DNA from: Promethearchaeati archaeon SRVP18_Atabeyarchaeia-1
GTDB taxonomy: Archaea > Asgardarchaeota > Atabeyarchaeia > Atabeyarchaeales > Atabeyarchaeaceae
Reading direction: 5' to 3'
Length of the DNA stretch: 64,000 nt
Assembly: GCA_037308085.1 (NCBI GenBank)
Contig: CP147779.1
Coordinates: 2,144,001 to 2,208,000, forward strand
Made by a program: the position numbers and the translations under genes. Position 1 is the stretch's first letter. Each line of letters starts with the position of its first letter. Shown one piece after another: positions 10,391-36,343 of this stretch. Below the pieces are notes generated by a model that saw only the letters and a program-made list of their open reading frames with translations, was not told the origin of the DNA and searched no databases.

Positions 10391-10984
10391 TCACACGTAG
10401 TCTTCAACATTCAGGTATTGACTGCACAGCGGGCAAGCCTTCTTTTTTCTGAGCCACGCGACGAGATGGCCTCTGTGCGCCAGCCTCCCGCAGTGTAGGC
10501 ACCAAGCTACGTCATCCTTCTGGTTGAGCTCAAGGTTGCAGACAATACATTTTTCTTCCTGTGGCACGGTGGGAACCACGCGTTTCGACGTCCTTGACTT
10601 GGTCATGCCTCTCGCCTTATTCATGGTAGAGGCTTCTGCCTGTTGCCTGAGGGCTGCGCCGCACCTGGGGCAAAAATCTGGGTTGGCAATACTAATGCCA
10701 GTTTGGCAGATGGCACAGCGTGCAACTGGCGAGTAATACTGCGGGTGCTCACGCCTCCATCTCTCCTCTGCATCAGCTTCCGCAAGAGCGACTTCCCCAA
10801 GTTCTGTGGTGGACGGTGGTGATACGTCTACGTGTCCGACGACATGGAGGTACCCTCTGTAGAAGGTGTTACCTTCCTTGATCTCCTTTTGACGGACGAT
10901 GGCTCCACATTTAGAGCAGGTCTTCGATTTTCCGAGGGGCGGAGCTCCCCACATCCACGCCCCGCACCTTGGACACCTAGGCAT
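10391..10984 (-). CDS. Zinc-ribbon plus variant RING finger protein (soluble)
   Basis: Two CxxC...CxxC ribbons; C-terminal CIVC-x12-CLHC-x4-H-x2-H-x3-W-x6-CPLC. Confidence 0.8.
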   Translation of the reverse strand: MPRCPRCGAWMWGAPPLGKSKTCSKCGAIVRQKEIKEGNTFYRGYLHVVGHVDVSPPSTTELGEVALAEADAEERWRREHPQYYSPVARCAICQTGISIANPDFCPRCGAALRQQAEASTMNKARGMTKSRTSKRVVPTVPQEEKCIVCNLELNQKDDVAWCLHCGRLAHRGHLVAWLRKKKACPLCSQYLNVEDYV

Positions 10985-11190
10985 TCGCTTCCACCCTTGC
11001 CTGTTTATTACTTGCCCACCACAATGGAATCCTCATCTATTCTATTGAGGCTTCGATCCTTTATCACTGTTGCCAAAAACCAGCCTGCAAAAGCTGAATT
11101 TGGACGTAGATACCGTGGCTACAAAACACAAAGGAGGATGAAAGTCGGGGAGGCGCTCATACGATCAAGGCAAGGCGTATTCCCACTCGC

Positions 11191-12123
11191 TCACGAGCCA
11201 ATCTCCTTCGGTTTAAGGTGCTGACCACATATGGGACATGTTCCTTTTACGTGAAGCCATTCAAGCATGTGCGTTTTGTGAGCGGGGTTGCCACAGAGCG
11301 GGCAGTAAACAATTTGGTCTGAAGGTTGCAGACCTATCTTGCAGACCATACATATCCCAGTGTCCTCCTTGGATGACCTAGTGTTTTCTTCGGTGATGCT
11401 GCTGGCCGCGGCAGGCTGTCTTGATAGGCTCGCTCCGCACGTTGAGCAGAACTTCCAGTCCGGCATGGTGATGGCGGCGCCACAGCTACTGCAGTACCTG
11501 AGAACGTTCTCGCTCTCAAGAGGCCTGCTTTGAATAGGCGACGAGACTCTTTCGTTGCCTGGCACGGGAGGAGCAGGCTGAACAGTTTCAGGACCTTGAT
11601 TAGTACCCTGTGTGGATGGCGCGCTTTGGCGAGGTCGACGCCTCGGGCGTGCGTCATAGATTTTGGAGAATATGGAAACCGAGGCTACAGATACTATGAA
11701 AATGATGAGTAGACTCACGGCGACATTCGGGGTCGTGACGATCTTGACCAACGCAGTCAGCGGGTTGGAACCCTGGTTCTGGATGACAAAGTGGTAGTTG
11801 GAATCTAATGGAATATTAACGCTGGTGCTGCCTGGCTGTGAATTTAGAAAGACGTAGCCAGAGTACGAAGACCCAAGCGTAAAGAGTTGATAGTTCACCT
11901 CATCGACCACGATAATAGTAACAAGGTAAGGCAACGTTGACCCGCTCACGCTGATAGTGACGGTGGCACCCCCTTCCAGGAACCGAGAGTACTCGCATTG
12001 CCCATGACCGTTGATTAGCACGGTCTCATCGGCAATGGTTGAGGGGGCCGCATAAAGTACCGTAGTTGATGCTATAGATATAGTCAAAACTAGCAGCAGT
12101 AGCGAGATCTTGCGACGCTGCAT
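11191..12123 (-). CDS. Receptor-like RING protein: signal peptide, beta-sandwich (GOLD-like) ectodomain, TM, zinc ribbon, RING
   Basis: Hydrophobic N-terminus; beta-rich domain ending YHFVIQN; TM VAVSLLIIFIVSVASVSIF; CSSCG..CSTCG; CMVC..CPLC..HKTH..W..CPIC. Confidence 0.8.
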   Translation of the reverse strand: MQRRKISLLLLVLTISIASTTVLYAAPSTIADETVLINGHGQCEYSRFLEGGATVTISVSGSTLPYLVTIIVVDEVNYQLFTLGSSYSGYVFLNSQPGSTSVNIPLDSNYHFVIQNQGSNPLTALVKIVTTPNVAVSLLIIFIVSVASVSIFSKIYDARPRRRPRQSAPSTQGTNQGPETVQPAPPVPGNERVSSPIQSRPLESENVLRYCSSCGAAITMPDWKFCSTCGASLSRQPAAASSITEENTRSSKEDTGICMVCKIGLQPSDQIVYCPLCGNPAHKTHMLEWLHVKGTCPICGQHLKPKEIGS

Positions 12124-12452
12124 TTGCCCTCTCCCTCCACAACTTCAAGTCTAGAGTATCCTCATGATCCTCATAAATAGCTTACTTCATCAGTCGGGGC
12201 GCAGAGAAAACGGATTTGCCCGCGCCTAATCTCGACCTGCATACTTCTAGCCAATACTCTGTATGGCTTCTTGGAACCCCTTTCATTGCTAGACCCATCT
12301 AGCAGATAAGCTAATATTTAAGGTAATCGCTTCAATGCGATGCAACTCTTCCAAAATGGGGCTGCGTGCCCGTGGATAGTTGTACGGGCAAAGGGAAGTC
12401 TCCCATTGTTCAGTGTGATGCGAAGAAGGCATCCTCGGATTCCTTACACCGT

Positions 12453-13607
12453 TTACCGTGATCTTTCTTCTCCCATCAACGCGTGCACCTTTGGCATCCA
12501 TTCACTTACCAGTATTTTCTGTGGGCACTTCTCTTCGCATTTCCTGCATTGAAGGCATGCGCCCGCGCGTTCTTTCTCAGCCATAAACCTCGCGTACCTC
12601 ATGCGAGCCGTGTTGGGGTTATCATATATTATCGCGTCATTATACAACTCAAAGTTGACTAGTATGTTCACTCCATTCTCGCACGGCATGCAGTAACCGC
12701 ATCTCGTGCAGGGGATCGCTGTTCTCTCTCTGTATTTATCCTTGACGCGCTCAATCAACTGTAGCTCCTTGGACGCGAATGAATTTACGCTTGACGTGTT
12801 TGCCGATCGAATGTTCTCATAAACCTGTTTCATTGTACTCATACCACTCAACGCAACAGATACCTCTGGTTGGTTCCAGACCCACCGTAACCCCCAGTCA
12901 GCTGAGGATCGCCTCTTTTCGAAGCTGTCGAACACTTCTTGAATTGGTTTTGGCGGATTCGTCAGCCGTCCGCCTCTAAGTGGTTCCATCACGACAACGG
13001 CCAATCCCTTCGACGCGGCATACTTCAGTCCCTTTGTTCCTGCTTGGTTCTCAGTATCCATATAGTTGTACTGTATCTGGCACAAGGTCCAACCGCTGTA
13101 TGCATCAATGATCTCCCTGAAAACTTCATATTTGTCATGGAACGAGAATCCTAGGTTTCTGATTCTGCCGTCCCTGATGGCAGCTTCCGCCTTCTGCAAT
13201 AGATTTAGACCGAGAACGGTCTTCCATCTTTGTTCTTCCAGACCGTGGAAGAGGTAGATATCAACGTGATCCGTCTGCAGTTTCTTGAGCTGTTCATTCA
13301 GGTAGGTATCGAAGTCCTCAGGTCTGCGTAACGCCCACACTGGACACTTTGTGGCGAGCTTGACCTTGTCCCTGTATCCGTCACTCAATGCCTTTCCTAC
13401 GATGACTTCACCGTTCCCTCCGTGATAGGGATATGCCGTATCGATGTAGTTCACCCCTTGGTCAATGGCATAGCGGATCATCGGTATTGCTTCTTGCTCG
13501 TTTACATTTCCACTGGCGCCAACTCCATCGGTTGTGGGTAGACGCATGCAACCGAAACCAAGTGCCGAAACTCTCCAATCGAGCCGACCAAACTTCCTGT
13601 ACTGCAT
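12453..13607 (-). CDS. Aldo/keto reductase with C-terminal 4Fe-4S dicluster domain
   Basis: LGFGCMRLP, DTAYPYH, GFSFHD, QIQYNY, MEPLRGG, CTRCGYCMPC, CLQCRKCEEKCPQ. Start set at MQYRK. Confidence 0.93.
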   Translation of the reverse strand: MQYRKFGRLDWRVSALGFGCMRLPTTDGVGASGNVNEQEAIPMIRYAIDQGVNYIDTAYPYHGGNGEVIVGKALSDGYRDKVKLATKCPVWALRRPEDFDTYLNEQLKKLQTDHVDIYLFHGLEEQRWKTVLGLNLLQKAEAAIRDGRIRNLGFSFHDKYEVFREIIDAYSGWTLCQIQYNYMDTENQAGTKGLKYAASKGLAVVVMEPLRGGRLTNPPKPIQEVFDSFEKRRSSADWGLRWVWNQPEVSVALSGMSTMKQVYENIRSANTSSVNSFASKELQLIERVKDKYRERTAIPCTRCGYCMPCENGVNILVNFELYNDAIIYDNPNTARMRYARFMAEKERAGACLQCRKCEEKCPQKILVSEWMPKVHALMGEERSR

Positions 13608-13899
13608 CCTCTTCTCTCCTCGTGTCCTTGCGTATAATGTGGGATTCAATAGATCTTTTCAAGTGTTGAAGCCGCGAAGCCACGTTTCATGGTCTTCACA
13701 AGACTCTGGTTGTGATAAGTGTTGTCCTCCTCGCTTTTGAAACTACCATTGCCTCAGCAGTTGCGTGCAACTTGGGTTACTTGATTTGCATGGCACGCGA
13801 GGTTTCCCTCTACTACCCGGATCCAGGATGAGGGCCTTGTCTCAAGTCCCGTGAAAACTATATATTTACCGGCTTGGTATGTTGTTTGTGGTGAATTCT

Positions 13900-14484
13900 A
13901 TGCCAAGGACTCAGGTTAAGATGATTATGGAAATAGGAGGAAATGTTGAGCAATTTGCTGGCGAAGCTGTTAAGAAAAAAGTTATGGAGGGAAGCGAGAA
14001 GATAACTGGCAGCACGAGTGGGACCGAAGTCGCCCACTGGGTCAAGGGTGCAATGGATAGGCTGAACTCCCTCACCGATGAGGAGACGAGGACAAAGATC
14101 ATGGAGAATTGTGGCTTCAACTGCGCACTACATAACAAGGCGCCCCTTGAGAAGGCGAGAATAAGACGGAAGAAGTTCAAGACCCTAGACGACTTTCTTG
14201 ACGCTGAGCAGAAGAAGCCGATGCCAGGAACTAGATTTTCACGCGATGGTGACAGACTCCTCTGGTATTTTACGCCGCAATCGTTCAGGACGCCGATGAG
14301 ATGTTTCTGCGGGCTACTAAGAGCGCTGCCCCAAGATGAGACTGTATCTCGCACATACTGCAATTGCTCAAGGGGTTTTGTGAAGAAGTACTGGGAAGGT
14401 GTCCTAGGCAAGCCAGTTGACGTCGATGTTCTCCAGACAGCCGTGTCTGGCGCAAGGGAATGCAAGTTTGCGATTCACATATAG
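13900..14484 (+). CDS. DUF6144-like protein (V4R-related, Cys-containing)
   Basis: MENCGFNC, RCFC, YCNCSRGFVKKYWEGVLG, GARECKFAI. Confidence 0.7.
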   Translation: MPRTQVKMIMEIGGNVEQFAGEAVKKKVMEGSEKITGSTSGTEVAHWVKGAMDRLNSLTDEETRTKIMENCGFNCALHNKAPLEKARIRRKKFKTLDDFLDAEQKKPMPGTRFSRDGDRLLWYFTPQSFRTPMRCFCGLLRALPQDETVSRTYCNCSRGFVKKYWEGVLGKPVDVDVLQTAVSGARECKFAIHI

Positions 14485-14512
14485 GGCAGCCGCCACTGGA
14501 CTGAAAAAGTCT

Positions 14513-14878
14513 ATGGTGAGTAATATACTGAGATCAACCGAGAAGGCAAGCGTCGATGACGGGATAATAGATAAGGAAATCGAACTGGCTAAGATACATG
14601 TTTTCTCATAGCGAGCCCATACAAGATACACAACAATCGTTACAACCAGCTACGCCATCTTCGTGGGGTTTGCTGTCGTCTTCTATACGCTGTACTTTGA
14701 GAACGTGCTTACTCTTGACAAATTCCTCTTCAGCTTTGCAGTACTTACTGGTGGAACGGCCTACGAGTTATGTCGTGTACGTCGAGGATATCTAAGGGCT
14801 CTCAAGAAGCTTTCTGAAATGATAGAAGCAGTCAAGGAAGGCAAAGAGTTGCCAAAGCTAGAAGAAATGATAAAGTAA
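14513..14878 (+). pseudogene. Small two-TM protein interrupted by an in-frame TAG
   Basis: ATG at 14513; the frame continues past TAG 14609-14611 into ORF 14663-14878. Confidence 0.6.
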
Positions 14879-14947
14879 TGAGGTTCAAGCTCCAACCACT
14901 GGCACGACGCATAGGAGCTGAAGACTCTCCTGCTACTTGATCGGCGG

Positions 14948-15628
14948 TCATCCTATTTCCTGTTCATTTAGGTGTCGGGAGCACACAGGGCATTTTCCCC
15001 GAACATGAATCCACTCAAGCAAGTGCACTCTGTGAGCTGCGCTACCGCAGTGCGGACAATGGGCAATTTGGTCAGTGTCGAGTAGGCTGAATCCACAGAC
15101 CATGCATTGACCTGGATGGACTTCCCGAGCTGAAATACTGCTTCTCCCAGTTGGACTACCTGAATCCAGTTCAATTAGGCTCGCCCCGCAGTTTCTGCAG
15201 AATCTCCAATCTGACTTGCCAACGGTCGCGCCGCAGTACTTGCAGTACCCTAAGGCGCCGCGTTCCTGTGGCATGCTGGTCAGCGCGTCTACCCTGCTCT
15301 GCCGCTGGTCAGCGCGAGTGGGCCTTGCCTGCAATCCCCTGCGAGCGGTTTCCTCAGGCGAGGTCGGCGTGGGTCGCCTGACTATCTCCAACTTCCTTGA
15401 AGATCCTAGAATTGCGAAGAAGGATGGGAAGAGAAGCCAGAGGAACAACAATGATGCGTTTATGGCGATGAACACGAAGAGCCCGCAGAATAGGATGGCA
15501 AGGGCAAACGGTGCTGCGCCCCCAGATGCTGAGCATCGGAGTGTGGCGTGACACCTTGAGCAGGAGAAGTCTTCGTAGCGTCTCGCCCTCACAGCTATCC
15601 AGTTGCCGCAGTTTGGGCATCTTGGCAT
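14948..15628 (-). CDS. Zinc ribbon, two TM, zinc ribbon, variant RING protein
   Basis: CPNC..CSRC; hydrophobic hairpin; CKYC..CRNC; CMVC..CPHC..HRVH..W..CPVC. Confidence 0.8.
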   Translation of the reverse strand: MPRCPNCGNWIAVRARRYEDFSCSRCHATLRCSASGGAAPFALAILFCGLFVFIAINASLLFLWLLFPSFFAILGSSRKLEIVRRPTPTSPEETARRGLQARPTRADQRQSRVDALTSMPQERGALGYCKYCGATVGKSDWRFCRNCGASLIELDSGSPTGRSSISAREVHPGQCMVCGFSLLDTDQIAHCPHCGSAAHRVHLLEWIHVRGKCPVCSRHLNEQEIG

Positions 15629-16020
15629 GTTTCTTTCTCACCACCAAAAGACTCCTAGGTGTTCTCGTCTATTTAAGGAAATCGCTTTCATGTTATGGAA
15701 TACACGGTGCCTTGCTCGCTCAGCCAGTTCAGCAGGTACGTTCCTCAGGAGAGTCTATCGTCGTCTTTTCTATGGTGCATTTTGCTTACAATGCCTCCAG
15801 CTCTGTGTGTTCCGTGATACCGCCTTGGCGCTGACGGGCCTTCCGGTTGGAGAAGCGATCACTCCTGCTCTCGATTCACGTTGAGAGTACTTCCTTTCGG
15901 TGAATGCCGATTACTTGCATCTAACTCTCCATATGTCGAAACAGGATGCTTCACGTTGTTGTAAAGTATTTTAGGTCGGAGCGAATGAGCAGACAGCAAC
16001 AAGCTGTTCTGGTGAGGGAA

Positions 16021-18741: not shown

Positions 18742-18765
18742 GAGCGACAGTCGAGAGATGCAGCC

Positions 18766-19755
18766 ATGGAGCCTATAATCAACAAGACAACTTCAAAGCA
18801 TCCTGAGTGGAATGAGTCATACTACTTCGCCTTCTACTCCAAAGAGCACAAACTCGGAGGGGTCTCTCGAATAGGCTTCAAGCCAAACAAGCCTGAGAGT
18901 ATGACATTCTTCTTTCTCTTTCTCCCTGACGGATCGGCTGCCGGATATCATCTCACAAACAAGGCAAAGGAATACTCCAGGATCCTGCAGGTTGGCGGCA
19001 TGGCTCACCTTCCCCAGGGCAATGAGGTGTGGAAGTATGAGTTCAAGGGAAACATGATCCTTGTTAAGAACCCTGAAAATCTTCCAAAAGCGCGCGAGCA
19101 GCCAGAAATAATCTCAGGCACACCAAAGGTTGAGATGGAGTTTACCTTCAACCCAATCAACGAGCCGTATGAATACGCCAAGCACATGACGCCTGAATCT
19201 CTGGAGCTCGGAAGGAAGGCTGGAGACAGACACTGGGAGCAGATCGCGAGGGTTAATGGAAAACTCATCGTCGACGAGAAGACCTATGAAGTCAAAGACA
19301 TGATAGGTCAGAGGGACCACACGTACGGGATCCGCGATTGGACAGGGGTTGGCGACTGGCTCTACTATGTGGTCTGGTTCAATGAAGGACTAGCGATTAA
19401 TCCCGCAGCGATCGTGGCGGACGATGGGCGAATGAGCACCGGTGGATTCCTCTTCAAGGACGGAAAGAACATTCCACTTAAGACAATAAAGATCCGCGAT
19501 CAGCGCTTCCGAGAAGATGGGGTGTTTCCTGTCAGCTCCGAGCTGGAAATTGTTGATGAGTCGGGTAAGAAGCATGTTCTGAAGGCTCGCGTCGGACCAA
19601 TCGTCCCAGTTCCTTTCCAAGACAAAGATGGGAAGCAATCCATTCTGATTCAGTCCTTTGGAAACTTTGAGCTAGATGGAATTAAAGGAGGCTATGGGAC
19701 TTTCGAGACGCTGCGAAAGGCCAAAAGAATCTGGGGCGGTAAGGAGGAGGGATAG
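18766..19755 (+). CDS. Uncharacterised beta-barrel protein (DUF7064/AttH/tocopherol-cyclase-like)
   Basis: WNESYYF, HWEQ..V.G, GQRDHTYGIRDW motifs; 24 bp downstream of the PEP-utilising gene. Confidence 0.65.
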   Translation: MEPIINKTTSKHPEWNESYYFAFYSKEHKLGGVSRIGFKPNKPESMTFFFLFLPDGSAAGYHLTNKAKEYSRILQVGGMAHLPQGNEVWKYEFKGNMILVKNPENLPKAREQPEIISGTPKVEMEFTFNPINEPYEYAKHMTPESLELGRKAGDRHWEQIARVNGKLIVDEKTYEVKDMIGQRDHTYGIRDWTGVGDWLYYVVWFNEGLAINPAAIVADDGRMSTGGFLFKDGKNIPLKTIKIRDQRFREDGVFPVSSELEIVDESGKKHVLKARVGPIVPVPFQDKDGKQSILIQSFGNFELDGIKGGYGTFETLRKAKRIWGGKEEG

Positions 19756-20108: not shown

Positions 20109-20111
20109 GCT

Positions 20112-25534: not shown

Positions 25535-26284
25535 TTACGTGTAATACTCCTCGCTGAGTCCTTCTCCGCAGGCTGGGCAACTCTTCCTTTCACGGATCCA
25601 TCCAATAAGATCGGCTCTATGTGCTAGCCTGCCGCAGTGCGGGCACCAAACTACATCATCTCTCTGTTTAAGCTCCAGGCCACACACCATGCATTTCTCC
25701 GTCTCCTGCGTCTGCGCCACGAGTGTTTGCCTTGATTTCCCCTTTTCTTCCATTTGCTGTGGTTCAGCTCGGCCAGCTCCGGCCTGCAGTTTTGACCCGC
25801 AGTGGTAGCAGAACTTCGCGCCTGCTGGGGCTACCGTAGCATGACAGTGTGGGCAGGCTGCTTGTTCGAAGCCATTTCTCACGGAGATCTTTGAAGGCCC
25901 CCTCTGAGTTTAGGTTGGTCCCTCTTGATCCGCTTCTTGTCTCGCAGTTTCCTCAAGGCGATCCGCGTAGAGAGGTCGGTACGAGTCATCCTTTGGCTCC
26001 TCCTCATCCTCGTCCTCATTATCCTCGGTCTCGGGTAGAGTTGCTTCACCCAGCTCTCGGCTCGGTGTCTGCGGCACGATCTCATCGGACCTGTAGGAAG
26101 GATCTCTTACGTAAGTGCTGTGTCGCGACGCGCGCGGGCAGTCAACAACTTCCACCGAATTAAGGAAGAATCCACCCAGGCTCGCCTTCCTCTCCAGTAT
26201 TGCTCCGCAGCCAGGACAAACCACCTCCTGAGAATAACGCGTGGGATGCCAGAGCCAGATCCCACAGTTCGGACACCTAGCCAT
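25535..26284 (-). pseudogene. Zinc ribbon, acidic linker, zinc ribbon, variant RING gene split by one in-frame TAA
   Basis: ORFs 25910-26284 and 25535-25882 share a frame (EGPT*TQRGPSKISVRNG). Same layout as 32431-33108. Confidence 0.75.
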
Positions 26285-26342
26285 ATGTACCTCTCACCGC
26301 CTCACTTCTGCCAGGATTAGTCAGCAAACCCGGTTCTACGAA

Positions 26343-27143
26343 TTATATTCCTTCAACGTAATGCTCATCAAGATGCTTCTCGCAGACCGGGCAGTAGTCA
26401 TGAGTGTGCAACCATTCCAGCATGTGTTCCCTGTGTGCTGGACTTCCGCAGTGGGGGCAAAACACCACCTCATCCGCCTTGGAGATAGCAAGATTGCATA
26501 CGATGCACTTCCCAGCAGAACCGGAGGCTGCAGATATACTTGTCAGCGATCCCACTTCCACATATTGCTCCAAGTCTCCAACTGAAGTTCCTCGGCCACG
26601 AGCGAATATCGCCACGAAAACAATCATAATGAATATCATAAAAAAGCCAGGAACAATCAGGAGCGGTGCCAGAAACGAAGAGCCCCCCATAAATGACATC
26701 GGGCCGACGAATAAGAATATGACGATGAACCCGAAGAAGATGCAAAAGAATACTGGTATGAGGAGAGCTGCGCCCGAGGCTCCCCTTCCCGAGGGATGTA
26801 TTTCGCCAGTCTCATCGCAAGCTAGCCTCTTAACGTCAACTGATTCAGGTAGATTGCTGCCTGCTTTCCACACTCTCGCTCTGCCCCAGATGGTGACATT
26901 GTTACCGGGCATGATTCCAATGTTTCGGGTCTGCATATCTATAAGGCAGGTTACGGGTTTCCCTCCGATTCTCACAGTTATGGCCCCGACCTGCGATATC
27001 CAGCTAGATACCGATCCCGCGGTGGAGCCGCCTGCATAGCCCCTTACGTGTGTTTCAGGGTTCAGGCGAACTTCAGTTACCTCACCGCTAAACTTCACTA
27101 GCTCAGGCCGAGTAGCAGTATTGCTTCTTGAAGCTGGCGGCAT
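26343..27143 (-). CDS. OB-fold-like domain, two TM, variant RING protein
   Basis: Beta-rich N-terminus (FSGEVTEV..GNNVTIWG); two TM helices; CIVC..CPHC..HREH..W..CPVC. Confidence 0.78.
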   Translation of the reverse strand: MPPASRSNTATRPELVKFSGEVTEVRLNPETHVRGYAGGSTAGSVSSWISQVGAITVRIGGKPVTCLIDMQTRNIGIMPGNNVTIWGRARVWKAGSNLPESVDVKRLACDETGEIHPSGRGASGAALLIPVFFCIFFGFIVIFLFVGPMSFMGGSSFLAPLLIVPGFFMIFIMIVFVAIFARGRGTSVGDLEQYVEVGSLTSISAASGSAGKCIVCNLAISKADEVVFCPHCGSPAHREHMLEWLHTHDYCPVCEKHLDEHYVEGI

Positions 27144-27441
27144 TACCGATCTCCTCCATCTTCCTTCTTTTTACCCTTGCGATAGTCTCTCTTGATTTGC
27201 CCAACCATAATATATTTTTCGCTCCAAAAGAACCCCGCGTGATGACAGCCCAGGCGGGCGCTCTACTACGCTCCGACCCAACACTCGGTTGAAGCGACCA
27301 CGCGCACGGGAATAACAATACGGCACCAGAAGACCTTTAGGCAGGAATCCCCCAAAATGGGGAAGTGTATGGCAAAGATTTGGCAGAAGTTTTGACCGCA
27401 ATTCGCCTATAACAAAGGGTGAACCCCCTCGAGGTGATAAC

Positions 27442-27981
27442 TTGACAGCCAGAAGCGCTCTAGAGGGATTATTCCTAAGAAAAGGATTCAACGACTTTAA
27501 GTGGATCGACCCGGCGAAGATCATTGTATCCCAATGGGTCAGGATGAAATGCACCTTCGGATGCCCGGAATATGGCAGGAATGCTTCGTGCCCTCCGAAT
27601 ACGCCGTCAGTCCCGGAGTGCGAGAAGTTCTTCAAGGAATACAAGGAGTCAGTGGTCTTCCACTTCCCGAAGAAAGTCGACAAGCCTGAAGACCGCCACG
27701 CATGGACCAAGAAGGTAAGCCTCAGCCTCCTGGAACTCGAGAGAGAGGTTTTCCTCTCGGGCTACCGAAAAGCGTTCCTCCTCGTCATGGATAGCTGTGG
27801 GCTCTGCGAGGAATGTACTGGGAATAGACAGACATGCAAGCAACCGAGGCTCTCGCGCCCTACTCCTGAAGCGCTGGCCGTCGATGTCTTCGCAACAGTC
27901 AGGCAGATAGGGTACCCTATCGAGGTTCTCAGGGACTACTCCGAGACAATGAATCGCTACGCTATCATGCTGATTGAGTAG
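27442..27981 (+). CDS. DUF2284 family metal-binding protein
   Basis: WVRMKCTFGCPEYG..SCPP, CGLCEEC, RPTPEALAVDVF. Confidence 0.85.
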   Translation: MTARSALEGLFLRKGFNDFKWIDPAKIIVSQWVRMKCTFGCPEYGRNASCPPNTPSVPECEKFFKEYKESVVFHFPKKVDKPEDRHAWTKKVSLSLLELEREVFLSGYRKAFLLVMDSCGLCEECTGNRQTCKQPRLSRPTPEALAVDVFATVRQIGYPIEVLRDYSETMNRYAIMLIE

Positions 27982-28056
27982 GAGCAGTCACTCAGATACT
28001 GCCAGCGATCTGAAAATGCAGTGGAAAACTAGTAGTTCGCCGCACGCGATTGGGTT

Positions 28057-29163
28057 CTACCCCATGGTCATCTCTTCTACTTGAATGCCTCTCCTCTGGA
28101 GTTCTCGGAGGACCAGTTTGGAAACCTTGTCGTCCATGCCAAGAACCTCAAGTGGTAGGACACCCCTCCGTTGTATCTGCTTCCGGGCTACAAGTAGCGA
28201 CATGATGGCTATTGGATAACCCGTCGTGCGAGACATGGAGGATATCTTGTTCCTATCGTCGTACCTGTCGAGCATGCGATACCTTACAGACTCTGCTTCT
28301 CCTTTTACTTCTACTTCTAGTATTGTGATGTCTCTTTCTCCCTTTTCCAGTGCCAGCGTCGAGGAGATGAAGGCCTCCATGAAGTCTCTTGGTCTTATTC
28401 CAAGGATCTTTGGCTCCTTCGCGAAGAGACCCATGTGAACCATAGTCTTGATTTTCTCCACATGCCCGGGGTACCTGATCGTCTTCTCGTCCATTTCCTT
28501 GAGCTTCAGGGTATCCACCAGAGTTCTGAGGCCATCCGTGTAGAAGCACTCGAGTTTTCCGATGCCCGGGAAGTCGAAGGTTTCAAGACCCGTTAGGGCA
28601 TCGACCTCGACCGTCACTCCGTTCTTCACTATCCGCGCCTTGCGGGTGTACTCATCAACCAGCGCTTCCGCTGAGAAGACAAGTCTGTAGTTCAGAGGGG
28701 GTGTAGGTTTCTCTGGCAGGCCGCCAACCTTTATGTGGGCTTCAGTTGGATTCTTCACCTTGGTCATTCCCAGTCCAACCAGGAAGTTGCTGAATCCAGG
28801 GGCGACCCCACAATCTGGCACGATGATAACCCCTGCGCCTTTTGCCTTCTCGTCGAGAGTCAGGGGATTCTCTTCTCCGAAGGAGACATCAACAAGATCC
28901 ACTCCCGCCCTGATCGCCGTCTCCATCACCCCGAACCCCAAGTTACCCGGAACTGCTGACGCCACAACGTTGTACCCACTCTCCATGACCTTCAACAGCG
29001 TCTTTTGGTCCTTGAAGTCCATCTTCACCACTCGGCAACCTGGGATAGTCTTCGCTTCTCGGTCTCCAACTATCACCTCTGCGCCGCTCCTCGCCAACTC
29101 TCGTGCCAAGACGCCACCTATCATTCCCGCACCAAGCACCAGTATCTTCGGATGTTGGCTCAT
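28057..29163 (-). CDS. Saccharopine dehydrogenase / lysine 6-dehydrogenase family oxidoreductase
   Basis: GAGMIG, DCGVAPG, VGGLP, FYTDGLRTL, KTIRYPGH, MSRTTG. Confidence 0.9.
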   Translation of the reverse strand: MSQHPKILVLGAGMIGGVLARELARSGAEVIVGDREAKTIPGCRVVKMDFKDQKTLLKVMESGYNVVASAVPGNLGFGVMETAIRAGVDLVDVSFGEENPLTLDEKAKGAGVIIVPDCGVAPGFSNFLVGLGMTKVKNPTEAHIKVGGLPEKPTPPLNYRLVFSAEALVDEYTRKARIVKNGVTVEVDALTGLETFDFPGIGKLECFYTDGLRTLVDTLKLKEMDEKTIRYPGHVEKIKTMVHMGLFAKEPKILGIRPRDFMEAFISSTLALEKGERDITILEVEVKGEAESVRYRMLDRYDDRNKISSMSRTTGYPIAIMSLLVARKQIQRRGVLPLEVLGMDDKVSKLVLRELQRRGIQVEEMTMG

Positions 29164-29231
29164 GAGAAACCACCGTGATACCCTCTTGAATGAATAGCGA
29201 CTTACCCCGAGGGTAATATATTACTTCCTCT

Positions 29232-29360
29232 GGTTCTGTTATCTCTGCGGTTGATAACCGTTTGGGTTAACTTCTCCGCTCTGGCTCACCGCCTTATTTA
29301 GGGGTCGGATCACGGCTACATGTGCGGGGCGATCCAGCCTGAACCGCAGGCTTTCATCTT
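29232..29360 (-). ncRNA. Putative reRNA/omegaRNA scaffold overlapping the tnpB 3' end
   Basis: Hairpin AGCCTG-CGGTT-CAGGCT (29352-29336), whose GGTTC is complementary to the terminal GAACC; homologous to the MITE interior. 5' boundary approximate. Confidence 0.6.
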
Positions 29361-30465
29361 GGGTTTTGAGCAGGTTTAAGCAGGCGTTTACATGTCGATC
29401 TGTTCCGCACCATCCTAGGGTTTTCGCTTTCGGGTCTTGCATGATGCACCCACACACCGCGCAAATCCTAGAAGTGTTCCACGGACTGACTTTGACGGTT
29501 TGGACTCCCGCCCAGAGAGCCTTGTACTCGATGAAGCCCTGCAGCTTGCGGAAGCTCCACGAGTTCAACCTCCGCTTCAGTTTCCTGGAGTGTTTGCTTA
29601 TCTTCTGAATCCTCCCGTTGAAGCTGTTGACGCCCAAGACCTTCCTGTTAATCGCCCTGCGGATATGTCTAAGATCCTCGAGGATAATGCCTTGCTCCCT
29701 GGCTTTTGCTTGTCTAACTATCGCTGAACTCACCTGGTGCAGGACTGTGTTGACCTTGTTGTTCTGGTTGGTGAACCATCTTCTCTGAATCTTCTTGGCT
29801 ACCCGCTTGTCCTTAGCGTACTTGGCTTGAACCTTTCGTACACGCTCGAAGTATCCGTGCCTCGCCTCTGAAACCCTCTACAGATCGTGGCTTTCAATAG
29901 TTAGCTGTCCATCTTCTTTTGCGCTTGCTCCGTCCAACGAGCGTTCATTCGTGTCGTACGCGATGTAACCCTTTGGTTCGGCGACCTCAGCGGTCTTCGA
30001 GAAAACCAGCGAAACCGTGCAGGCAGCCAAGGACACTGAACCCAACTTGAGCGCGGCATCCGATAGGAACTGCGCAGCCCTCTTATGCAGGGGAACGTAG
30101 AAGTACTCTCTGGGCTTGATCGGTATTCTCAGTTTGCCGTCAACGAATCTGTAGGCCTGGTTTCCCAGTTTGGCCGTGAGTTTCTTGGCCCTCGGCGCTC
30201 TAACAATCCGGCGCCTTCTTTTCGCTTTCCGGTAGTTCTTCAGGATGGCGGTGGCAGCCTCGATGGCTGAGAGGCTTTACCAGGTGTGGAGACCGAAGCC
30301 GCTTAGCTGGTCGTACGTCTCGCTCTGCAGGCTGAGCCTGGAAGTTGCATTCCTCTCCAGGCCGACGCGGATGCAGTGGTTAACCATGGTTCTGAAGGTT
30401 TCAAGGAGGCTGAGAACACCACTTGTAGGCTCGTATGGTACCTGCACCGCTTTAACTGCCTGCAT
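29239..30465 (-). pseudogene. tnpB: TnpB/Cas12f-like RNA-guided nuclease (408 codons, two in-frame stops)
   Basis: Single frame from ATG 30465, with stops TAA 30277-30279 and TAG 29878-29880. RuvC-I YIAYDTNERS, RuvC-II IILEDL, WSFRKLQGFIEYKA, NTSRICAVCG, DRHVNACLNL. Confidence 0.92.
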
Positions 30466-30717
30466 AAAACTAAATAAGCCAAAAATCCCATTTAAACTCA
30501 CCAACCGCAGAGGTAACAGATCCCTTGCTCTGAAAAGAACGCTTTCTGAGACAGAGAAAGCTGGACATTCCGCACATATAGGCACGGACGCAATACGGAC
30601 TGCGATAGCGAAGGAAGAGTTGACGGATCCTTCTTGTTCACCTCGTTTCCTAGCCCCGCATTTGGATTGATTAATACGCACCTGAGGCGAGCCTCAAGCC
30701 AAGTTGGACCCCAGTAC

Positions 30718-31248
30718 TCATTTCGATCGCAGGGTGTGTCTATATGCCTTCCAAGTCCCTCTCGAAGGTACAGAATCATACCACATATTCCAATAGTCGT
30801 CTAGGTAGGGTCGCACCGCCCCGTAGAGCATATCTGTGCCAATCTTGATGCGCTTTTCGCTCCTCCACCACTTGATGCCAAGCTTGTCGAGGACTGAGTG
30901 AAGCGTCTCGTGCAACTCTATCTCAAGTAGCCGGCGGATGAAGTTGCTCTTCGGCGAGTTCTTCGTGTATATGCTTTCAATGTAGATTGTGACCTTCTCA
31001 TAGCTAGCCACCCCGAGTGTCCTCTTGCAGTTCCGCAGGGAGAAGTCGTACTTCGTCTCGGCGTCCACTTTCTCCGGTCTATTGCGCCACATCATCTCCT
31101 GTTTACGGTAACACTGGTCGGAGCGAATGTATCCTCTGCGCATTGCCTCTTGTCTTCTCGGGCAGGAGCGAGCGGAGCCATACTGGCAACCAATGCAGAC
31201 ACTTGGATCCTCAGGTTCGATGAGTACCATGTCTGTCGCGACCAACAA
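30718..31248 (-). CDS. Hypothetical protein with HExxH zincin-like motif and N-terminal Cys cluster
   Basis: IELHETLHSVL; CIGC..C..C at the N-terminus. Confidence 0.55.
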   Translation of the reverse strand: MLVATDMVLIEPEDPSVCIGCQYGSARSCPRRQEAMRRGYIRSDQCYRKQEMMWRNRPEKVDAETKYDFSLRNCKRTLGVASYEKVTIYIESIYTKNSPKSNFIRRLLEIELHETLHSVLDKLGIKWWRSEKRIKIGTDMLYGAVRPYLDDYWNMWYDSVPSRGTWKAYRHTLRSK

Positions 31249-31387
31249 TCGGATAGGTACAATGATGATTCGATGAGAAATTTCTGTGCCGCACTTCCCC
31301 TCTGTATTTCATCTTATGTAATAAAACTCTTGTGGCTCCGCGCCGCCGTCGAGCATCCTAATGCGGGACTCCAAGATTCAGGTGCTG

Positions 31388-32368
31388 CTAAGTATTCTTT
31401 TTCGATGCAGTTCGGGTATTGGCTGAGTGCATCTCGCTCAGTTCAAAGATCATGTCGGCGTATTCCTGAATGAGCCGGCTTCTGTAGATTCTCTGTAACC
31501 ATTTCCTGGGTATATCTTCCAAGCCGTAGAATGCACCCGCTAGTTGCCCGTATACGGCGCCAGTCGTGTCCGCGTCGTCACCGAGGTTCACAGCAAGTAG
31601 GCAACCCTCTTGGAAGGAACTGCTCTTGTGGAAAGCCCAGAGTGCCGCCTCAAGAGACTCGACTACGTACCCACTGCCCTTGATCTCTGGTGGCTCCTTT
31701 CGCTTGAAGCTTCCTCTGGCAACAGCGCTTATCCTTGGACAGAGCTCGTTCCTCTCCCAGTAGCGGGGCGATGGGGAGTAGCATGCTGAAAGTAGTGCCT
31801 CCTTCTGGACGCCACTCGCTGCGCCACAGATGAGTCCTCCGAAATACCTGCAGGCATCGATAGCTTCCCTCACCTGGTGGGTCGTTCGTGAGCTTTCGCC
31901 AGACTTCTCGATTGCTTCAACGGGGTCTTGCGCGTAAAAGAGGGGGACGGGTGCGAGTCGCATGAGGGAGCCATTGCCCGCGCTTTGCTCATCGTCTGGT
32001 CCACAATACGCCCGAGGATTCCTCTCGAAGCTTTGTAGCGCTGCTCGAACGACGTTGCCCACATCAAAGGATTTTCCAGTGCTGCTGAGATGCCCTTCCC
32101 TGTACCAGCTGATGTATCTTCTCAGTTGATCCATGAGGTCAAAGCCTCTGCAGTTGATCAGGCTTTCTGCTAGGCAAAGGGCCATTGATGTATCATCGGT
32201 CCACTGTCCAGGTCGTAGGTGAAAAAATCCTCCTCCGACAATGTCCCTGACCGGAGGGAATGTTCCGGGGGACTTGAACTCTACTGTGGCGCCAAGGGCA
32301 TCACCCACTGCCAATCCCAGGAGGCTCCCCCTGTAGCGCTGAACCCTCTTCATCGTATCTAGCTCCAC
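31388..32368 (-). CDS. ADP-ribosylglycohydrolase (DraG/ARH family)
   Basis: [47 protein letters not shown]. Confidence 0.95.
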
Positions 32369-32430
32369 CCGTCATGGCCAATCCCCGATGCGCCATCCAG
32401 TTCTCGCTTTTCTTGGGTGGGTGTCAATTT

Positions 32431-33108
32431 CTACTGCTGCAGCTCTTGTTGGGTTGTTTTCTGTTTGCATGCTGGGCAGTATCCCTTGTCGCGTACCCAT
32501 TGCAGGAAATGCGTTCTATGTGCGAGGCGCCCGCAGTGAGGGCAGCGTATCGCTACGTCACCGTCCCTGAAGTTCGCGTCGCAGACCATGCAATGCTCCG
32601 CCTGCTCATCCAAGTCCAAGAGGCTCTCACCCTTTGACCCACGTCTTAGGTTCGCGCCGCAGGCTGTGCAGAAGTTGGCGTTCGGATGCATGTTTATTGC
32701 TCCACAGGCGTTGCACATTTTCCAGCTCACCTTGAGAGGCTTCGAGTAGGGCACCTCTGTCGTGGATTCAGCATTCTCTGCTGGACTCACGCTCTGTGAG
32801 GCTTCTTCTTGCGGAGTCTCAGCCTGGTCTTGGCGGTCGCGCATCCACCTGCTCCTTGCTTCATCCTCGCTCAAGTCGACTTCTCCAGGTTCGATTTGGG
32901 GTTCATTCCACTCTTCTTGATCAATTGTTGTGGTTTCTCCAAGGACTTTTCCCCTTATGCCATGCTTCAGCTTCACGCCAGCCCCACAGTGAGGGCAGTA
33001 GATCACTTCTTCGGGGGTTGGCAGTACTATTTTCCCCCCACACTTCGGGCAATGCTGGTAGAACTCCTCGGTAGATGGCGGTACATGTCCGTGACCTAGG
33101 TACGGCAT
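32431..33108 (-). CDS. Zinc ribbon, acidic linker, zinc ribbon, variant RING protein
   Basis: CPKC..CPHC, CNAC..CTAC, CMVC..CPHC..HRTH..W..CPAC. Confidence 0.8.
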   Translation of the reverse strand: MPYLGHGHVPPSTEEFYQHCPKCGGKIVLPTPEEVIYCPHCGAGVKLKHGIRGKVLGETTTIDQEEWNEPQIEPGEVDLSEDEARSRWMRDRQDQAETPQEEASQSVSPAENAESTTEVPYSKPLKVSWKMCNACGAINMHPNANFCTACGANLRRGSKGESLLDLDEQAEHCMVCDANFRDGDVAIRCPHCGRLAHRTHFLQWVRDKGYCPACKQKTTQQELQQ

Positions 33109-33189
33109 GCTCTCAACCTCCTTTATGTGGCTTGATTCTCATTCCATCTAGGAGTGACGTTATGTTGTCGGTTCATTGCCTCTGTTGCC

Positions 33190-34005
33190 CTATCCCTCGT
33201 TCAGGATGTCCAGTTCGCCTAGGCGCCTTCTACATGCCGGGCAGTATCCCCTGGCGCGCACCCAGTCGAGAAGATGATCCCTGTGGTAAGCTATTCCGCA
33301 ACGCGGGCACCGTGAGAAGGGCTCACCCTCCTCGAGTCGCAAGTTGCACACGGCGCACCTTTTCTCACTGGGGTCGGTAATTACTATGTAGTGCAAACTG
33401 TGCGGTGCGGTTGCGATAACGTCTGGCAAGATGTCAAGGTCCCCGCGTAGTTCTACGATTTCTGGCTGGATTGGCATAGGGTGTTGACCATACCAAACGG
33501 CGCCAAGCGCGATCAACAGGGAAGATAGCGTGATAACGACACCCTCCAACGGTACCCAATCGACCGCCCAAGCGGCCCTAATTCCGAGGGTCGTGTTCAC
33601 GTGGTTTGGATTCTCAGCGATAAAGAAGTACGTGCGGTTGGCTAGGATATGGTAATTGATGTTGAGGTCTGACACTACACTGAGGGACAGCAGATAGGAG
33701 TACCCCGGATCACCATTCACCATGAGATGGTAGTTGAGGGGATCCATGACGCGGAAGAAGATCTGCTCACCCGAACTTGAATTTAGCCCTCCGAGCACCC
33801 TCAAATCAATATTCAAGGTCCCCCCGGTTGGCAATGTCTGATTTTGAACGTACAGTCCATGGGGGGCTATGGTTACCGTGGCATCAATCGGTGTCTCCGG
33901 CGTAGCGACGTAGGCTACAAATCCCATGGAAGCGAGCAACAGGGGTATCAGCACGACTAACGCTACCTGGCTCCACTCGCCAAAATAAGCTGCCTCTCTC
34001 TGCAA
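33190..34005 (-). CDS. Receptor-like RING protein: TM/signal, GOLD-like ectodomain, TM, RING
   Basis: N-terminal hydrophobic helix; beta domain ending YFFIAEN; TM; CAVC..CPRC..HRDH..W..CPAC. Confidence 0.78.
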   Translation of the reverse strand: MQREAAYFGEWSQVALVVLIPLLLASMGFVAYVATPETPIDATVTIAPHGLYVQNQTLPTGGTLNIDLRVLGGLNSSSGEQIFFRVMDPLNYHLMVNGDPGYSYLLSLSVVSDLNINYHILANRTYFFIAENPNHVNTTLGIRAAWAVDWVPLEGVVITLSSLLIALGAVWYGQHPMPIQPEIVELRGDLDILPDVIATAPHSLHYIVITDPSEKRCAVCNLRLEEGEPFSRCPRCGIAYHRDHLLDWVRARGYCPACRRRLGELDILNEG

Positions 34006-34180
34006 GTTCTAGACCCTCCTAACTGCTGTCATACGAAGCTATCGTCGAAACTTCCATTAATAGGTTACGCTTACAGCACGCGAAGAAAGGCACTCAATGA
34101 ACTGGAATCCCCTAGACTCGCCCTATCTCCGATTGAGTATCACTGGGAGTCCGTGGCCAAGAAGCCTGCCACGCGGCATG

Positions 34181-36343
34181 CTAGTCCAGCTTCTTCTTGC
34201 CTGTTGGTTCTGGTTGGGGCTCGGTCTGCTTCTTGACCTCCGCTTCGTCCAGATGCCTACCACACGTTGGGCAGTAATCCTTCACGTGTAACCACTCCAG
34301 GAAGTCGTCCCTGTGAGCCAGACCACCGCAATAGGGACAGAAGAGGATCTCATCGCTATTCTCCAATCCTCTCTTGCAGACCATGCAAACCCCTGATCTA
34401 GGGCGCATCCCCGTCTTCCGACCTGCAACAGAGGACACCGCCAAGCTGCCTTTCACAGGCGCGCCGCAGTTCCAGCAGGTTTCGTCAGTTGATTTCAAAG
34501 AAGCGCCACAGCTCCGGCACCGCACGGAACGAATAGGGGCGATGCGTTCCCGTCTCTCTCCCAGCATTCCCGGTTGGCTTGAGGGAACTTCCGGCGGGCG
34601 GTAATTCGATCCACCCGTAGGTCTCCCGGTCCCGCCTCTGCTTGAAACTGCTAGCACGACGGCGAAAAAGAGAACAACGAACAGAATCACCACAGCGTAG
34701 AACTCCATAGGGGGATTGGGTTGATTCCCACCGCCAAAGTCCACCGTCACAGTAAGGAGGTAAGCTCCACTGCCATGGGATGAGTAGACCATAATGTACC
34801 AATCGCCGTAGTAGGGATTGGGATAGTTGACGTCTTCGTCGCCGCTTGCAGTTCCGCTCCAGTAGTAGGATAACGTTGTTGGGTATGATCCGCACGCCCC
34901 GTAGAGATCAAAGTCAGCGCCTGACGGGCAAGTAAGAACAGCGTGCATGTTCACAGCGCTATTGTAGAGATACATGTACCAGAGATCGTACTCGCCAGTT
35001 CCGCTCAGGTTGCCACTGACAGTGTAGCCATTATAGAGGGACTGCGGGGTGAGAGGGGCTCTCACTGTCACAGTCAGCCGATATGTCCCATTGCCATGGA
35101 GCGACTCGACCATGATGTACCAGGTGCCAGAGGAAGGATTGTTATATGTGGTGTTTTCGTCGCCGCTTGCAGTTCCGCTCCAGGCGTAGAATGTCGTTGT
35201 TGGGTAAGATCCATAGGCTCCATAGAGATTGAAATCCGCGTTTGCCGGGCAAGTTAGGACCGAGTGCATGCTCGTGGCTCCGTAGGCAACGTATATGTAC
35301 CACAAGGCATAGTCTCCATTTCCATTCAGGGTGCCCGTTGCAGTCATGCCGTTCGATAGGTACTGGAGGACGGGGGCGTATGCTACGTAGACGGTTAGTT
35401 GATAGGTGCCGTTTCCGCTGTACGAGAAGGGCATTATGTACCACGCGCCGGCACCAGGATAACTGTATATGACGTCCTCGTTACCAGCCTGGTTTCCACG
35501 CCAGTAGTAGCCCGTCAACGTTGGATATCCCCCGTTCATCCCGTAGAGATCGAAGTCGGCGCCAGAAGAACAAGTGAGAACAGCCCGCATACTCGTTGCC
35601 CCACCCAAGATATATATGTACCAGAGGTCAGAGTCGGCGGTGGCATTGAGGCTACTGGTTGCAGGAGTCCCACTCGTAAGTGGGAGTTGAGCGCTCGTGT
35701 ACAGTACGGTGACAGTCAGAAGATAGTTCCCTTTGGAGAGGTCGGAATAAGCCATGATGTACCATGTGCCAGCCGAAGGATTGTAGTAGCTCATATCCTC
35801 AGTGCTTCCATAATATGTGGCGCTCCAGCTGTATGATGTGGTGGTTGGATAGACCCCGACTTGACCGTACAGATAAACGTAATTGCCGGGGTTGCCTGTG
35901 ACGACGGCGCGCATGAACCTTGCTCCACCGGTGACGTTGATGTACCACATCTCCGAGTCTCCGGTGCCATTCAGAAACCCGATGCTTGATACTCCATTAG
36001 TAAGAGGCCGTACTGCATCGCTGCTTCTGTACTCCGAGGGACTCCTACTGGACGCGTACTTGCCCACGCGGTAGTCAGTTCCCAGTCTATTAGAATCGGT
36101 CCCTTTCCCTCCCGGCGTGGGCGTCGCAGTTCGAAGATGTGTGAGCGTCGGCAAAGAAACGTTTGGTGAGTGCGCCTGCGCCGGAGCTACGTCGCCAGCT
36201 CCGGTCAATGGGCTCTGGGTGCCACGGCTTGCCGACATCAACCCAGCAGACGGAGACAAAACGGTTAAGAACAGCAGTAGAGCGAGGAGTCCTTCCGCGA
36301 ATCTTAGCTCAAGTTTGCTCCTTGTATTCGCCCTACCGTTCAT
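34181..36343 (-). CDS. Receptor-like RING protein: signal peptide, four PPC domains, TM, zinc ribbon, RING
   Basis: Four ~105-aa repeats with ADFDLY..G.YPT and G.WYIMV (pre-peptidase C-terminal domain); TM FYAVVILFVVLFFAVVLAV; CRSC..CWNC; CMVC..CPYC..HRDD..W..CPTC. Confidence 0.85.
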   Translation of the reverse strand: MNGRANTRSKLELRFAEGLLALLLFLTVLSPSAGLMSASRGTQSPLTGAGDVAPAQAHSPNVSLPTLTHLRTATPTPGGKGTDSNRLGTDYRVGKYASSRSPSEYRSSDAVRPLTNGVSSIGFLNGTGDSEMWYINVTGGARFMRAVVTGNPGNYVYLYGQVGVYPTTTSYSWSATYYGSTEDMSYYNPSAGTWYIMAYSDLSKGNYLLTVTVLYTSAQLPLTSGTPATSSLNATADSDLWYIYILGGATSMRAVLTCSSGADFDLYGMNGGYPTLTGYYWRGNQAGNEDVIYSYPGAGAWYIMPFSYSGNGTYQLTVYVAYAPVLQYLSNGMTATGTLNGNGDYALWYIYVAYGATSMHSVLTCPANADFNLYGAYGSYPTTTFYAWSGTASGDENTTYNNPSSGTWYIMVESLHGNGTYRLTVTVRAPLTPQSLYNGYTVSGNLSGTGEYDLWYMYLYNSAVNMHAVLTCPSGADFDLYGACGSYPTTLSYYWSGTASGDEDVNYPNPYYGDWYIMVYSSHGSGAYLLTVTVDFGGGNQPNPPMEFYAVVILFVVLFFAVVLAVSSRGGTGRPTGGSNYRPPEVPSSQPGMLGERRERIAPIRSVRCRSCGASLKSTDETCWNCGAPVKGSLAVSSVAGRKTGMRPRSGVCMVCKRGLENSDEILFCPYCGGLAHRDDFLEWLHVKDYCPTCGRHLDEAEVKKQTEPQPEPTGKKKLD
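34740..36003 (-). repeat. Four tandem intragenic PPC-domain repeats
   Basis: Visible at protein and DNA level, e.g. TCGTCGCCGCTTGCAGTTCCGCTCCAG near 34836 and 35157. Confidence 0.85.

Follow-up and report, generated by a model that had tools for sequence, protein, structure and literature searches.

RING finger genes in the window

The sequence analyzed here (hereafter the window) is a 64-kb stretch of the genome of the Asgard archaeon Atabeyarchaeia-1, positions 2,144,001-2,208,000 of its single 2,808,651-bp contig, and it carries eight genes whose products end in a variant RING finger domain and are considered below as candidate E3 ubiquitin ligases. Listing and translation of the open reading frames (ORFs) place all eight on the minus strand in four groups (window positions 10391-12123, 14948-15628, 25535-27143 and 32431-36343), and in every protein the common motif C-x2-C-x12-C-x2-C-x4-H-x2-[H/D]-x3-W-x6-C-P-x-C lies 10-26 residues ahead of the stop codon. 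This arrangement had been claimed in the original prediction, which was made from the letters of the window; it is confirmed by the ORF listing and by a gapless 55-column alignment of the domains. The same is true of the zinc ribbon (CxxC...CxxC) upstream of the RING, which is present in six of the eight proteins (P0001, P0002, P0003, P0004, P0006 and P0008) and absent from P0005 and P0007. The genes, together with the ORF P0009, are as follows.

P0001, 10391..10984, minus strand: 197 amino acids (aa); N-terminal zinc ribbon, acidic linker, second zinc ribbon, C-terminal RING at about 10400-10564
P0002, 11191..12123, minus strand: 310 aa; predicted signal peptide, beta-rich ectodomain of about 100 aa, transmembrane helix, Arg-rich stretch, zinc ribbon, RING at 11203-11367
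P0003, 14948..15628, minus strand: 226 aa; P0001-type plan with a hydrophobic (predicted transmembrane) insert after the first zinc ribbon, second zinc ribbon, RING at 14957-15121
P0004, 25535..25882, minus strand: 115 aa; zinc ribbon and RING at 25544-25708, Asp at ligand 6; 3' part of an interrupted P0001-type gene
P0009, 25910..26284, minus strand: 124 aa; N-terminal zinc ribbon and acidic linker; 5' part of the split gene
P0005, 26343..27143, minus strand: 266 aa; conserved all-beta N-terminal domain, two predicted transmembrane helices (hairpin), RING at 26358-26522; no zinc ribbon
P0006, 32431..33108, minus strand: 225 aa; zinc ribbon, long acidic linker, zinc ribbon, RING at 32443-32607; P0001-type, Lys at the canonical linchpin
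P0007, 33190..34005, minus strand: 271 aa; N-terminal hydrophobic anchor, P0002-related ectodomain, predicted transmembrane segment, RING at 33208-33372; no zinc ribbon
P0008, 34181..36343, minus strand: 720 aa; predicted signal peptide, four pre-peptidase C-terminal (PPC) domains, transmembrane segment, zinc ribbon, RING at 34238-34402; Asp at ligand 6

Zinc ligands were predicted from the sequence, and transmembrane segments and topology with the help of a simple hydropathy script. One full-length plan (zinc ribbon, acidic linker, zinc ribbon, RING) is shared by P0001, P0006 and the pair P0009+P0004, and P0003 has the same plan with a transmembrane insert; P0001 has no transmembrane segment and is predicted to be cytosolic. 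P0004 is in frame with the upstream ORF P0009, from which a single TAA codon (25910-25912) separates it, and in alignments P0009 matches the N-terminal half of P0001 and P0004 the C-terminal half. The two ORFs are one P0001-type gene, split or broken, and the count of eight genes therefore includes one split or possibly broken gene; the in-frame TAA could mean that the gene is a pseudogene or is truly split, or it could stem from faulty assembly.

P0002 and P0007 are predicted to be type-I membrane proteins, with beta-rich ectodomains that share 28% identity and belong to no known family; a homologue search with the P0002 ectodomain returned only P0002 itself. The N-terminal domain of P0005 has no assigned family; full-length orthologues of the protein, among them one in the sister genome G002, share 53-74% identity with it. 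Its full-length fold, predicted from a 4-sequence alignment, has a mean predicted local distance difference test (pLDDT) score of 43, too low for use, and shows only an all-beta N-terminal region, two transmembrane helices and the RING.

Identity of the conserved domain

The profile built from 28 domains of this genome (see the following section) was compared with all PDB sequences, and its top matches were RNF24 (3.3e-10), EL5 (3.7e-8) and Arkadia (4.9e-8), followed by RNF126, RNF165, ZNRF1, gp78, RNF4, RLIM, HRD1, RNF38, RNF13 and Rbx2. An AlphaFold2 model obtained from the 28-sequence alignment (pLDDT 89.4) contains two short strands and a central helix, with zinc absent from the model. In a Foldseek search it was superimposed on RING-H2 E3 ligases at template-modelling scores of 0.74-0.85 and root-mean-square deviations of 1.1-2 Å, including RINGs solved with ubiquitin-charged E2 (E2~Ub), namely RNF165, RNF38, RNF13 and TRAF6, and the matches listed were all RING or RING-like (U-box) fingers. 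The profile and model comparisons indicate that the domain is a RING-H2-type fold and not a PHD finger, and the RING-type identity proposed at the outset is upheld by both searches.

A PHD-like domain, or another binuclear treble-clef reader of peptides, lipids or nucleic acids that is unrelated to ubiquitin transfer, was weighed at this point and appears highly improbable. The C-x2-C-x4-H-x2- spacing of ligands 3-6 is the PHD consensus spacing, a faint PHDvar_NSD match was seen for P0007, and one PHD finger, that of KMT2D, was retrieved in the PDB profile search, as the sole one (E = 5.7e-3) and over positions 4-30, half of the domain. The RING-H2 ligases, however, are ahead of this match by seven orders of magnitude, the listed structural matches are of the RING/U-box kind, and the H-x3-W-x6-CPxC half can be matched position by position to RNF24, EL5 and Arkadia. 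The C4HC3 ligand set of PHD fingers is also not what is found, ligand 6 being His or Asp rather than Cys; moreover, it is also the domain of the ubiquitin-operon E3 described below and co-occurs strictly with the E2.

In Pfam, all eight window proteins match PF14446 (Prok-RING_1), three of them above its cut-off of 29.1 bits (P0002, 32.0; P0004, 37.4; P0005, 35.9), but the C-terminal half of the domain is RING-H2-like: PF13639 (zf-RING_2) is matched end to end (model positions 2-43 of 44) by all eight at 19.1-26.8 bits. Elsewhere in the genome, the same model gives 29.6 bits for the RING of the ubiquitin operon and 27.5-34.6 bits for some other paralogues. The Prok-RING families were reportedly defined in a study of 2011. 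In an NCBIfam scan of the eight window proteins, no match reached any cut-off.

The eight ligand columns, invariant or nearly so and in fixed order, fit a two-zinc cross-brace, with a spacing that departs from the canonical RING-H2 pattern C3-x-H4-x2-H5-x2-C6 and reads C-x2-C-x4-H-x2-[H/D]. According to the alignment with RNF24 and EL5, the fourth Cys of the family corresponds to canonical C3, no ligand is present in the variable column at canonical His4, a Cys three residues before canonical C3 takes the place of His4, and canonical Cys6 is replaced by His or Asp. Zinc site 1 would thus comprise C1, C2, H5 and H/D6, and zinc site 2 would comprise C3, C4, C7 and C8. The same ligand displacement, with an extra Cys termed "C3B", was described by Hennell James et al. 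for the operon RING of Caldiarchaeum (PMC5654768), and prokaryotic RINGs have been summarized in a review as C4HC3 (PMC11354881), whereas ligand 6 is His or Asp here. The suggestion that the ligand set marks a new RING class was not borne out: it is covered by PF14446 and PF13639, is present in the operon RING, and its displaced ligand has been published.

Size and distribution of the family

A six-frame regular-expression scan of the genome retrieved 24 exact copies of the motif and four with Trp replaced by Tyr or Phe (28 in total), compared with none in the reversed genome and none in three codon-shuffled genomes, so that chance is excluded. By profile count, the family comprises 28 proteins with 29 domains. 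The eight genes were thus confirmed, but as part of a 28-protein family and not as a self-contained set. The 28 domains align over the 55 columns with zero gaps; the Pro after C7 never varies, nor do seven of the ligands, and the remaining one, ligand 6, is His in 23/28 and Asp in 5/28. The protein L009 (G000:C1:1326843-1327937) carries a tandem pair of RINGs, with profile matches at 1327506-1327661 and 1327785-1327940.

The copies are clustered, eight of them within the 64-kb window and 24/28 within one 700-kb sector, and in 20,000 random placements neither eight copies per 64 kb nor 24/28 per 700 kb was obtained. The tree of the RING domains is built on 55 columns, with 23 of its 44 forks unresolved, and only the few supported nodes are used here. 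Asp at ligand 6 occurs in five copies, of which P0008, L006, L009 and L015 make up one supported clade (94/96); P0004 gained its Asp independently.

When all candidates were scored, 29 domain matches were found in this genome, 10 and 12 in its same-genus and same-family relatives, and 1-16 in most others. Other lineages have comparable or larger numbers (G118, 35 copies; G100, 29; G107, 28; G075, 25; G130, 23), and the idea of an expansion uniquely large in this genome was discarded in view of the first three. The high-copy genomes mostly have a single E2 of this type, but G075 has two and G130 three, and several contain tandem arrays. The family is Asgard-wide, and its expansion recurs in several lineages rather than being peculiar to this genome or window. 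A profile search of 1.84 billion representative proteins returned 636 clusters at E <= 1e-10 and 4,766 at E <= 1e-3. Among the best 144 non-window matches, the exact motif spacing and a RING within 45 aa of the C-terminus were each found in 137, an upstream zinc ribbon in 108, and at least one predicted transmembrane segment in 90; modules of the PPC, FG-GAP propeller, CarboxypepD_reg, TPR and arrestin types are seen repeatedly in this set.

Only a few window members can be assigned a clear full-length orthologue in the two sister genomes, and all five paralogues of the zinc ribbon-zinc ribbon-RING type have one and the same sister gene as their best match; this suggests a recent local expansion, although the same-genus assembly is fragmented. 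A published asCOG table lists 10 "RING finger domain" proteins for the 2.81-Mbp Atabeyarchaeia-1 genome (PMC11291895, Supplementary Data 5), as against the 28 counted here. A search of the openly accessible literature returned work on the operon E3, a UEV-Vps23 study and the asCOG counts, and no analysis of multi-domain or membrane-anchored Asgard RING expansions; a prior description of the expansion may exist. The expansion adds candidate ligases with several domains or a receptor-like layout to the archaeal operon RING E3, the ligand class itself being already known.

N-terminal modules

Elsewhere in the genome, the same RING is preceded by a variety of Pfam modules: SBP_bac_5, an FG-GAP propeller, HEAT repeats (three genes), CarboxypepD_reg and, in a clade of three tandem genes restricted to this genome, Arrestin_N/C. 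The finger itself spans about 50 residues in each protein, and a transmembrane helix often precedes it. The RING-adjacent zinc ribbon is homologous across most family members, and the duplicated unit is therefore [transmembrane segment]-zinc ribbon-RING, with unrelated modules placed in front. P0006 and P0007, which are neighbours on the chromosome, form a group in the tree (90/60) but differ in their N-termini, which weakly supports duplication with later replacement of the module. The shuffling of modules onto one RING cassette, proposed at the outset as the source of a modular E3 repertoire, holds across the family, where the N-terminal modules are unrelated, and less so within the window, where P0001, P0003, P0004 (with P0009) and P0006 are full-length paralogues of one architecture. 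The description of these modules as "sensors" is purely conjectural.

In their predicted layout (signal peptide or anchor, ectodomain, one transmembrane segment, cytoplasmic C-terminal RING), P0002, P0007 and P0008 resemble the eukaryotic PA-TM-RING proteins (RNF13, GRAIL/RNF128, RNF43/ZNRF3 and plant RMR), and the hydropathy-based prediction places basic residues after the transmembrane segment of all three. The RINGs of RNF13 and ZNRF3 are among the sequence or structure matches of the family. In contrast to the PA-TM-RING proteins, none of the eight has a PA domain, the ectodomain consisting of four PPC domains in P0008 and of a beta-rich region in P0002 and P0007, and an extra zinc ribbon precedes the RING of P0002 and P0008. 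We regard this resemblance as an analogy of layout that need not imply common descent.

The ubiquitin operon and its relation to the family

The window contains neither ubiquitin nor an E2, as originally stated, and genome-wide searches placed both about 1.8 Mb away, with one match to ubiquitin and two to UQ_con at about 329-332 kb. The ubiquitin operon found there, of the Asgard/Aigarchaeota type and in the order JAB-RING-Ub-E2-E1, directly adjoins genes of the endosomal sorting complex required for transport (ESCRT), Vps28 and UEV-Vps23 (G000:C1:327516-333300; L005:3517-9301). The members of this ubiquitin/ESCRT cluster are as follows.

JAB/MPN protease
Small RING protein, 83 aa
Ubiquitin, a pro-form ending GG-ND (L005:7446-7700)
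E2, a UQ_con protein (107 bits; L005:7840-8256)
ThiF-type E1 (L005:8363-9301)
Vps28, ESCRT-I
UEV-Vps23 fusion, ESCRT-I

A 266-aa gene of no assigned family lies between the JAB and RING genes, and a 420-aa TnpB-like gene (L005:2172-3434, minus strand) adjoins the cluster.

The genome has one E1, one E2, one pro-ubiquitin and a JAB, all in the operon, and the lack of an E2 that would have spoken against the original interpretation is not observed. The E2 keeps the HPN motif, and its catalytic Cys is invariant across 25 Asgard orthologues. Motif and spacing of the operon RING are those of the family, with which it aligns without gaps, and it carries Asn at the linchpin; in the domain tree it pairs with its sister-genome orthologue (99/86) and is nested inside the family. 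Its counterparts in other archaea are experimentally proven E3 ligases, namely the small RING of the Caldiarchaeum subterraneum operon (PMC5654768) and the operon RING of Helarchaeia (bioRxiv 10.1101/2023.07.25.550441). With this archaeal operon RING (srfp), the window proteins share the RING family, the conserved Trp helix, the CPxC motif and the displaced site-2 ligand. They differ from it in lying outside the operon, at a distance of about 1.8 Mb, in being multi-domain proteins of 115-720 aa rather than 83 aa, with added zinc ribbons, transmembrane helices and predicted extracellular or cytoplasmic modules, and in being candidate rather than proven ligases.

The RING family and the E2 also co-occur. 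Among 41 related genomes, both are lacking in the same eight and present in the remaining 33. A phylum-wide set of 332 genomes, each at least 80% complete, includes 253 with the RING and 237 with the E2 at a strict threshold; the families f5, f6 (0/71), f16 and f31 are without both, and all others except f19 have both. Genomes with the RING and without the E2 are few and belong mostly to the lineages f9 and f27, whose E2 scores sit just at the cut-off. The co-occurrence is supportive rather than a statistical proof, since related genomes are not independent. The family f6 is itself a large one, with 71 genomes, many of them more than 95% complete, that are without this RING family and this E2; it may be the Asgard lineage for which the absence of a ubiquitin system has been reported.

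Putative E2-contacting residues and proposed function

The eukaryotic RING-H2 ligases RNF24, EL5/ATL, Arkadia/RNF165, RNF38 and RNF126 are the best sequence-profile and structure matches of the family, which shares with them the helix Trp, the loop-1 Val/Ile, the CPxC motif and the position of the RING at or near the C-terminus, and differs in having C-x2-C with an upstream fourth ligand in place of C3-x-H4, His or Asp in place of C6, and mostly no linchpin Arg. The positions equivalent to those that contact the E2 in RING-H2 ligases are kept throughout: Val or Ile in loop 1 after C1, Trp, Tyr or Phe in the helix, and Pro after C7 are each found in 28/28 domains, in line with the E2-contacting surface first suggested from the Trp helix. 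A prediction of the RING-E2 complex with two zinc ions, made without controls, gave a score of 0.00 and counts neither for nor against binding.

On the strength of the fold, the pathway genes, the co-occurrence with the E2 and the architectures, we consider it likely that the eight genes belong to a 28-gene paralogous family of candidate RING-type E3 ubiquitin ligases. In the mechanism that we propose, the RING would dock the single UQ_con E2 through the conserved Val/Ile of loop 1, the Trp/Tyr/Phe of the helix and the Pro of loop 2, the E2 having been charged with ubiquitin by the single E1 after processing of pro-ubiquitin (...GG-ND) by the JAB protease. The variable N-terminal part would then decide on the substrate or on where the protein acts; in the window, the selectors would be paired zinc ribbons in the soluble proteins, extracellular PPC or beta-rich domains in the type-I membrane proteins, and a cytoplasmic beta domain on a transmembrane hairpin in P0005. 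Local duplication would have enlarged the family, and its members would afterwards have acquired new N-terminal modules or exchanged old ones. The analysis demonstrates the motif and its fold class, that the pathway genes are present, that the RING and the E2 are coupled across genomes, and that the architectures are diverse and clustered; E2 binding, ligase activity, membrane topology, zinc ligands and any sensing role are inferred.

A number of observations weigh against this assignment. The canonical linchpin position (C8+1) is occupied by Arg or Lys in 4/28 domains only and by Gly in 13, and because the linchpin is mostly absent, allosteric activation of E2~Ub may be weak or may use another residue. 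With PF14446, the proteins P0001, P0003, P0006, P0007 and P0008 score 18-25 bits, under the cut-off of 29.1, and the match covers only about positions 3-33 of the 54 in the model, that is, its first half; with PF13639, all eight are under the gathering cut-off of 27.3 bits. One window member is interrupted by a stop codon, and the RING genes of the window have no ubiquitin-system genes as neighbours, those present giving no functional hint. The multi-domain members are putative ligases.

The same facts bear on a different explanation, in which the paralogues are RINGs in structure but most are not ligases, acting as zinc-stabilised modules for protein interaction or dimerisation, or else regulating the E2 or serving as its decoys, while only the operon RING works as an E3. 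The missing linchpin Arg/Lys in 24/28, the copy split by a stop codon and the ratio of 28 E3s per one E2, very high for a 2.8 Mb genome, would all fit, and many eukaryotic RINGs are indeed inactive partners. We nevertheless hold it to be unlikely, since the E2-contact positions are kept in 28/28, the multi-domain members included, the operon RING, which lies inside the family, has Asn at its own linchpin position, orthologues of several members have been conserved, and the family occurs only together with the E2.

As a family of candidate ligases, the 28 genes give the genome a layout that looks like the eukaryote-style "many E3s, one E2". Ubiquitin specificity in eukaryotes is provided by hundreds of E3s with few E2s. 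To our knowledge, the biochemistry of archaeal RING E3s is confined to the single operon-encoded protein. In this genome and in several other Asgard lineages with 20-35 copies and a single E2, the occurrence of the same RING on arrestin, solute-binding, propeller, HEAT, PPC and membrane-receptor-like scaffolds represents a modular radiation in which each fusion points to a candidate substrate-recognition module, and such fusions make it experimentally approachable whether diversified E3s and receptor-type ligases preceded eukaryotes. More tentatively, and as a proposal about which we remain doubtful, Asgard archaea may already have had a eukaryote-style hierarchy of one E1, one E2 and dozens of substrate-specific RING E3s that included type-I membrane "receptor" ligases, with ubiquitylation in the cytoplasm controlled by their extracellular domains and modified membrane proteins handed over to the UEV-Vps23/Vps28 ESCRT machinery encoded next to the operon. 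If so, both E3 diversification and ubiquitin-dependent sorting of membrane proteins would be older than eukaryotes.

Genomic neighbourhood

The genes that lie between the RING genes of the window are metabolic ones, for glutamine synthetase, a PPDK-like enzyme, an aldo-keto reductase, pirin, HIT, FKBP and saccharopine dehydrogenase. Inference of substrates from the gene neighbourhood was abandoned, the neighbours being unrelated metabolic genes.

The surroundings are also relevant to the idea of a mobile or defence island, in which the RING proteins would belong to an antiviral or conflict system and not to housekeeping ubiquitin signalling. The concentration of 24/28 copies in one 700-kb sector, a TnpB-type fragment located between window members and the rapid lineage-specific change in copy number speak in its favour, and bacterial ubiquitin-like conjugation systems are reported to act in defence (PMC10557695). 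Against it stand the ordinary metabolic character of the intervening genes and the even G+C content across the window, with no search aimed at defence families having been made, and we rate this origin as very unlikely.

The TnpB-type fragment is a 164-aa ORF (29239-29733, minus strand) with only a Cas12f1-like/TnpB TNB domain and probably represents a truncated TnpB. Downstream of P0006, at a distance of 62 bp, lies a gene for an ADP-ribosylglycohydrolase (PF03747, 272 bits; 31388-32368, minus strand), which shares the strand of the P0008-P0007-P0006 run and may be transcribed together with it; a link between ADP-ribosylation and ubiquitylation is conceivable. Among the metabolic genes between the RING clusters there are also two conserved genes of unassigned function, DUF6144 (13879-14484, plus strand) and DUF7064/DUF7065 (18766-19755, plus strand).

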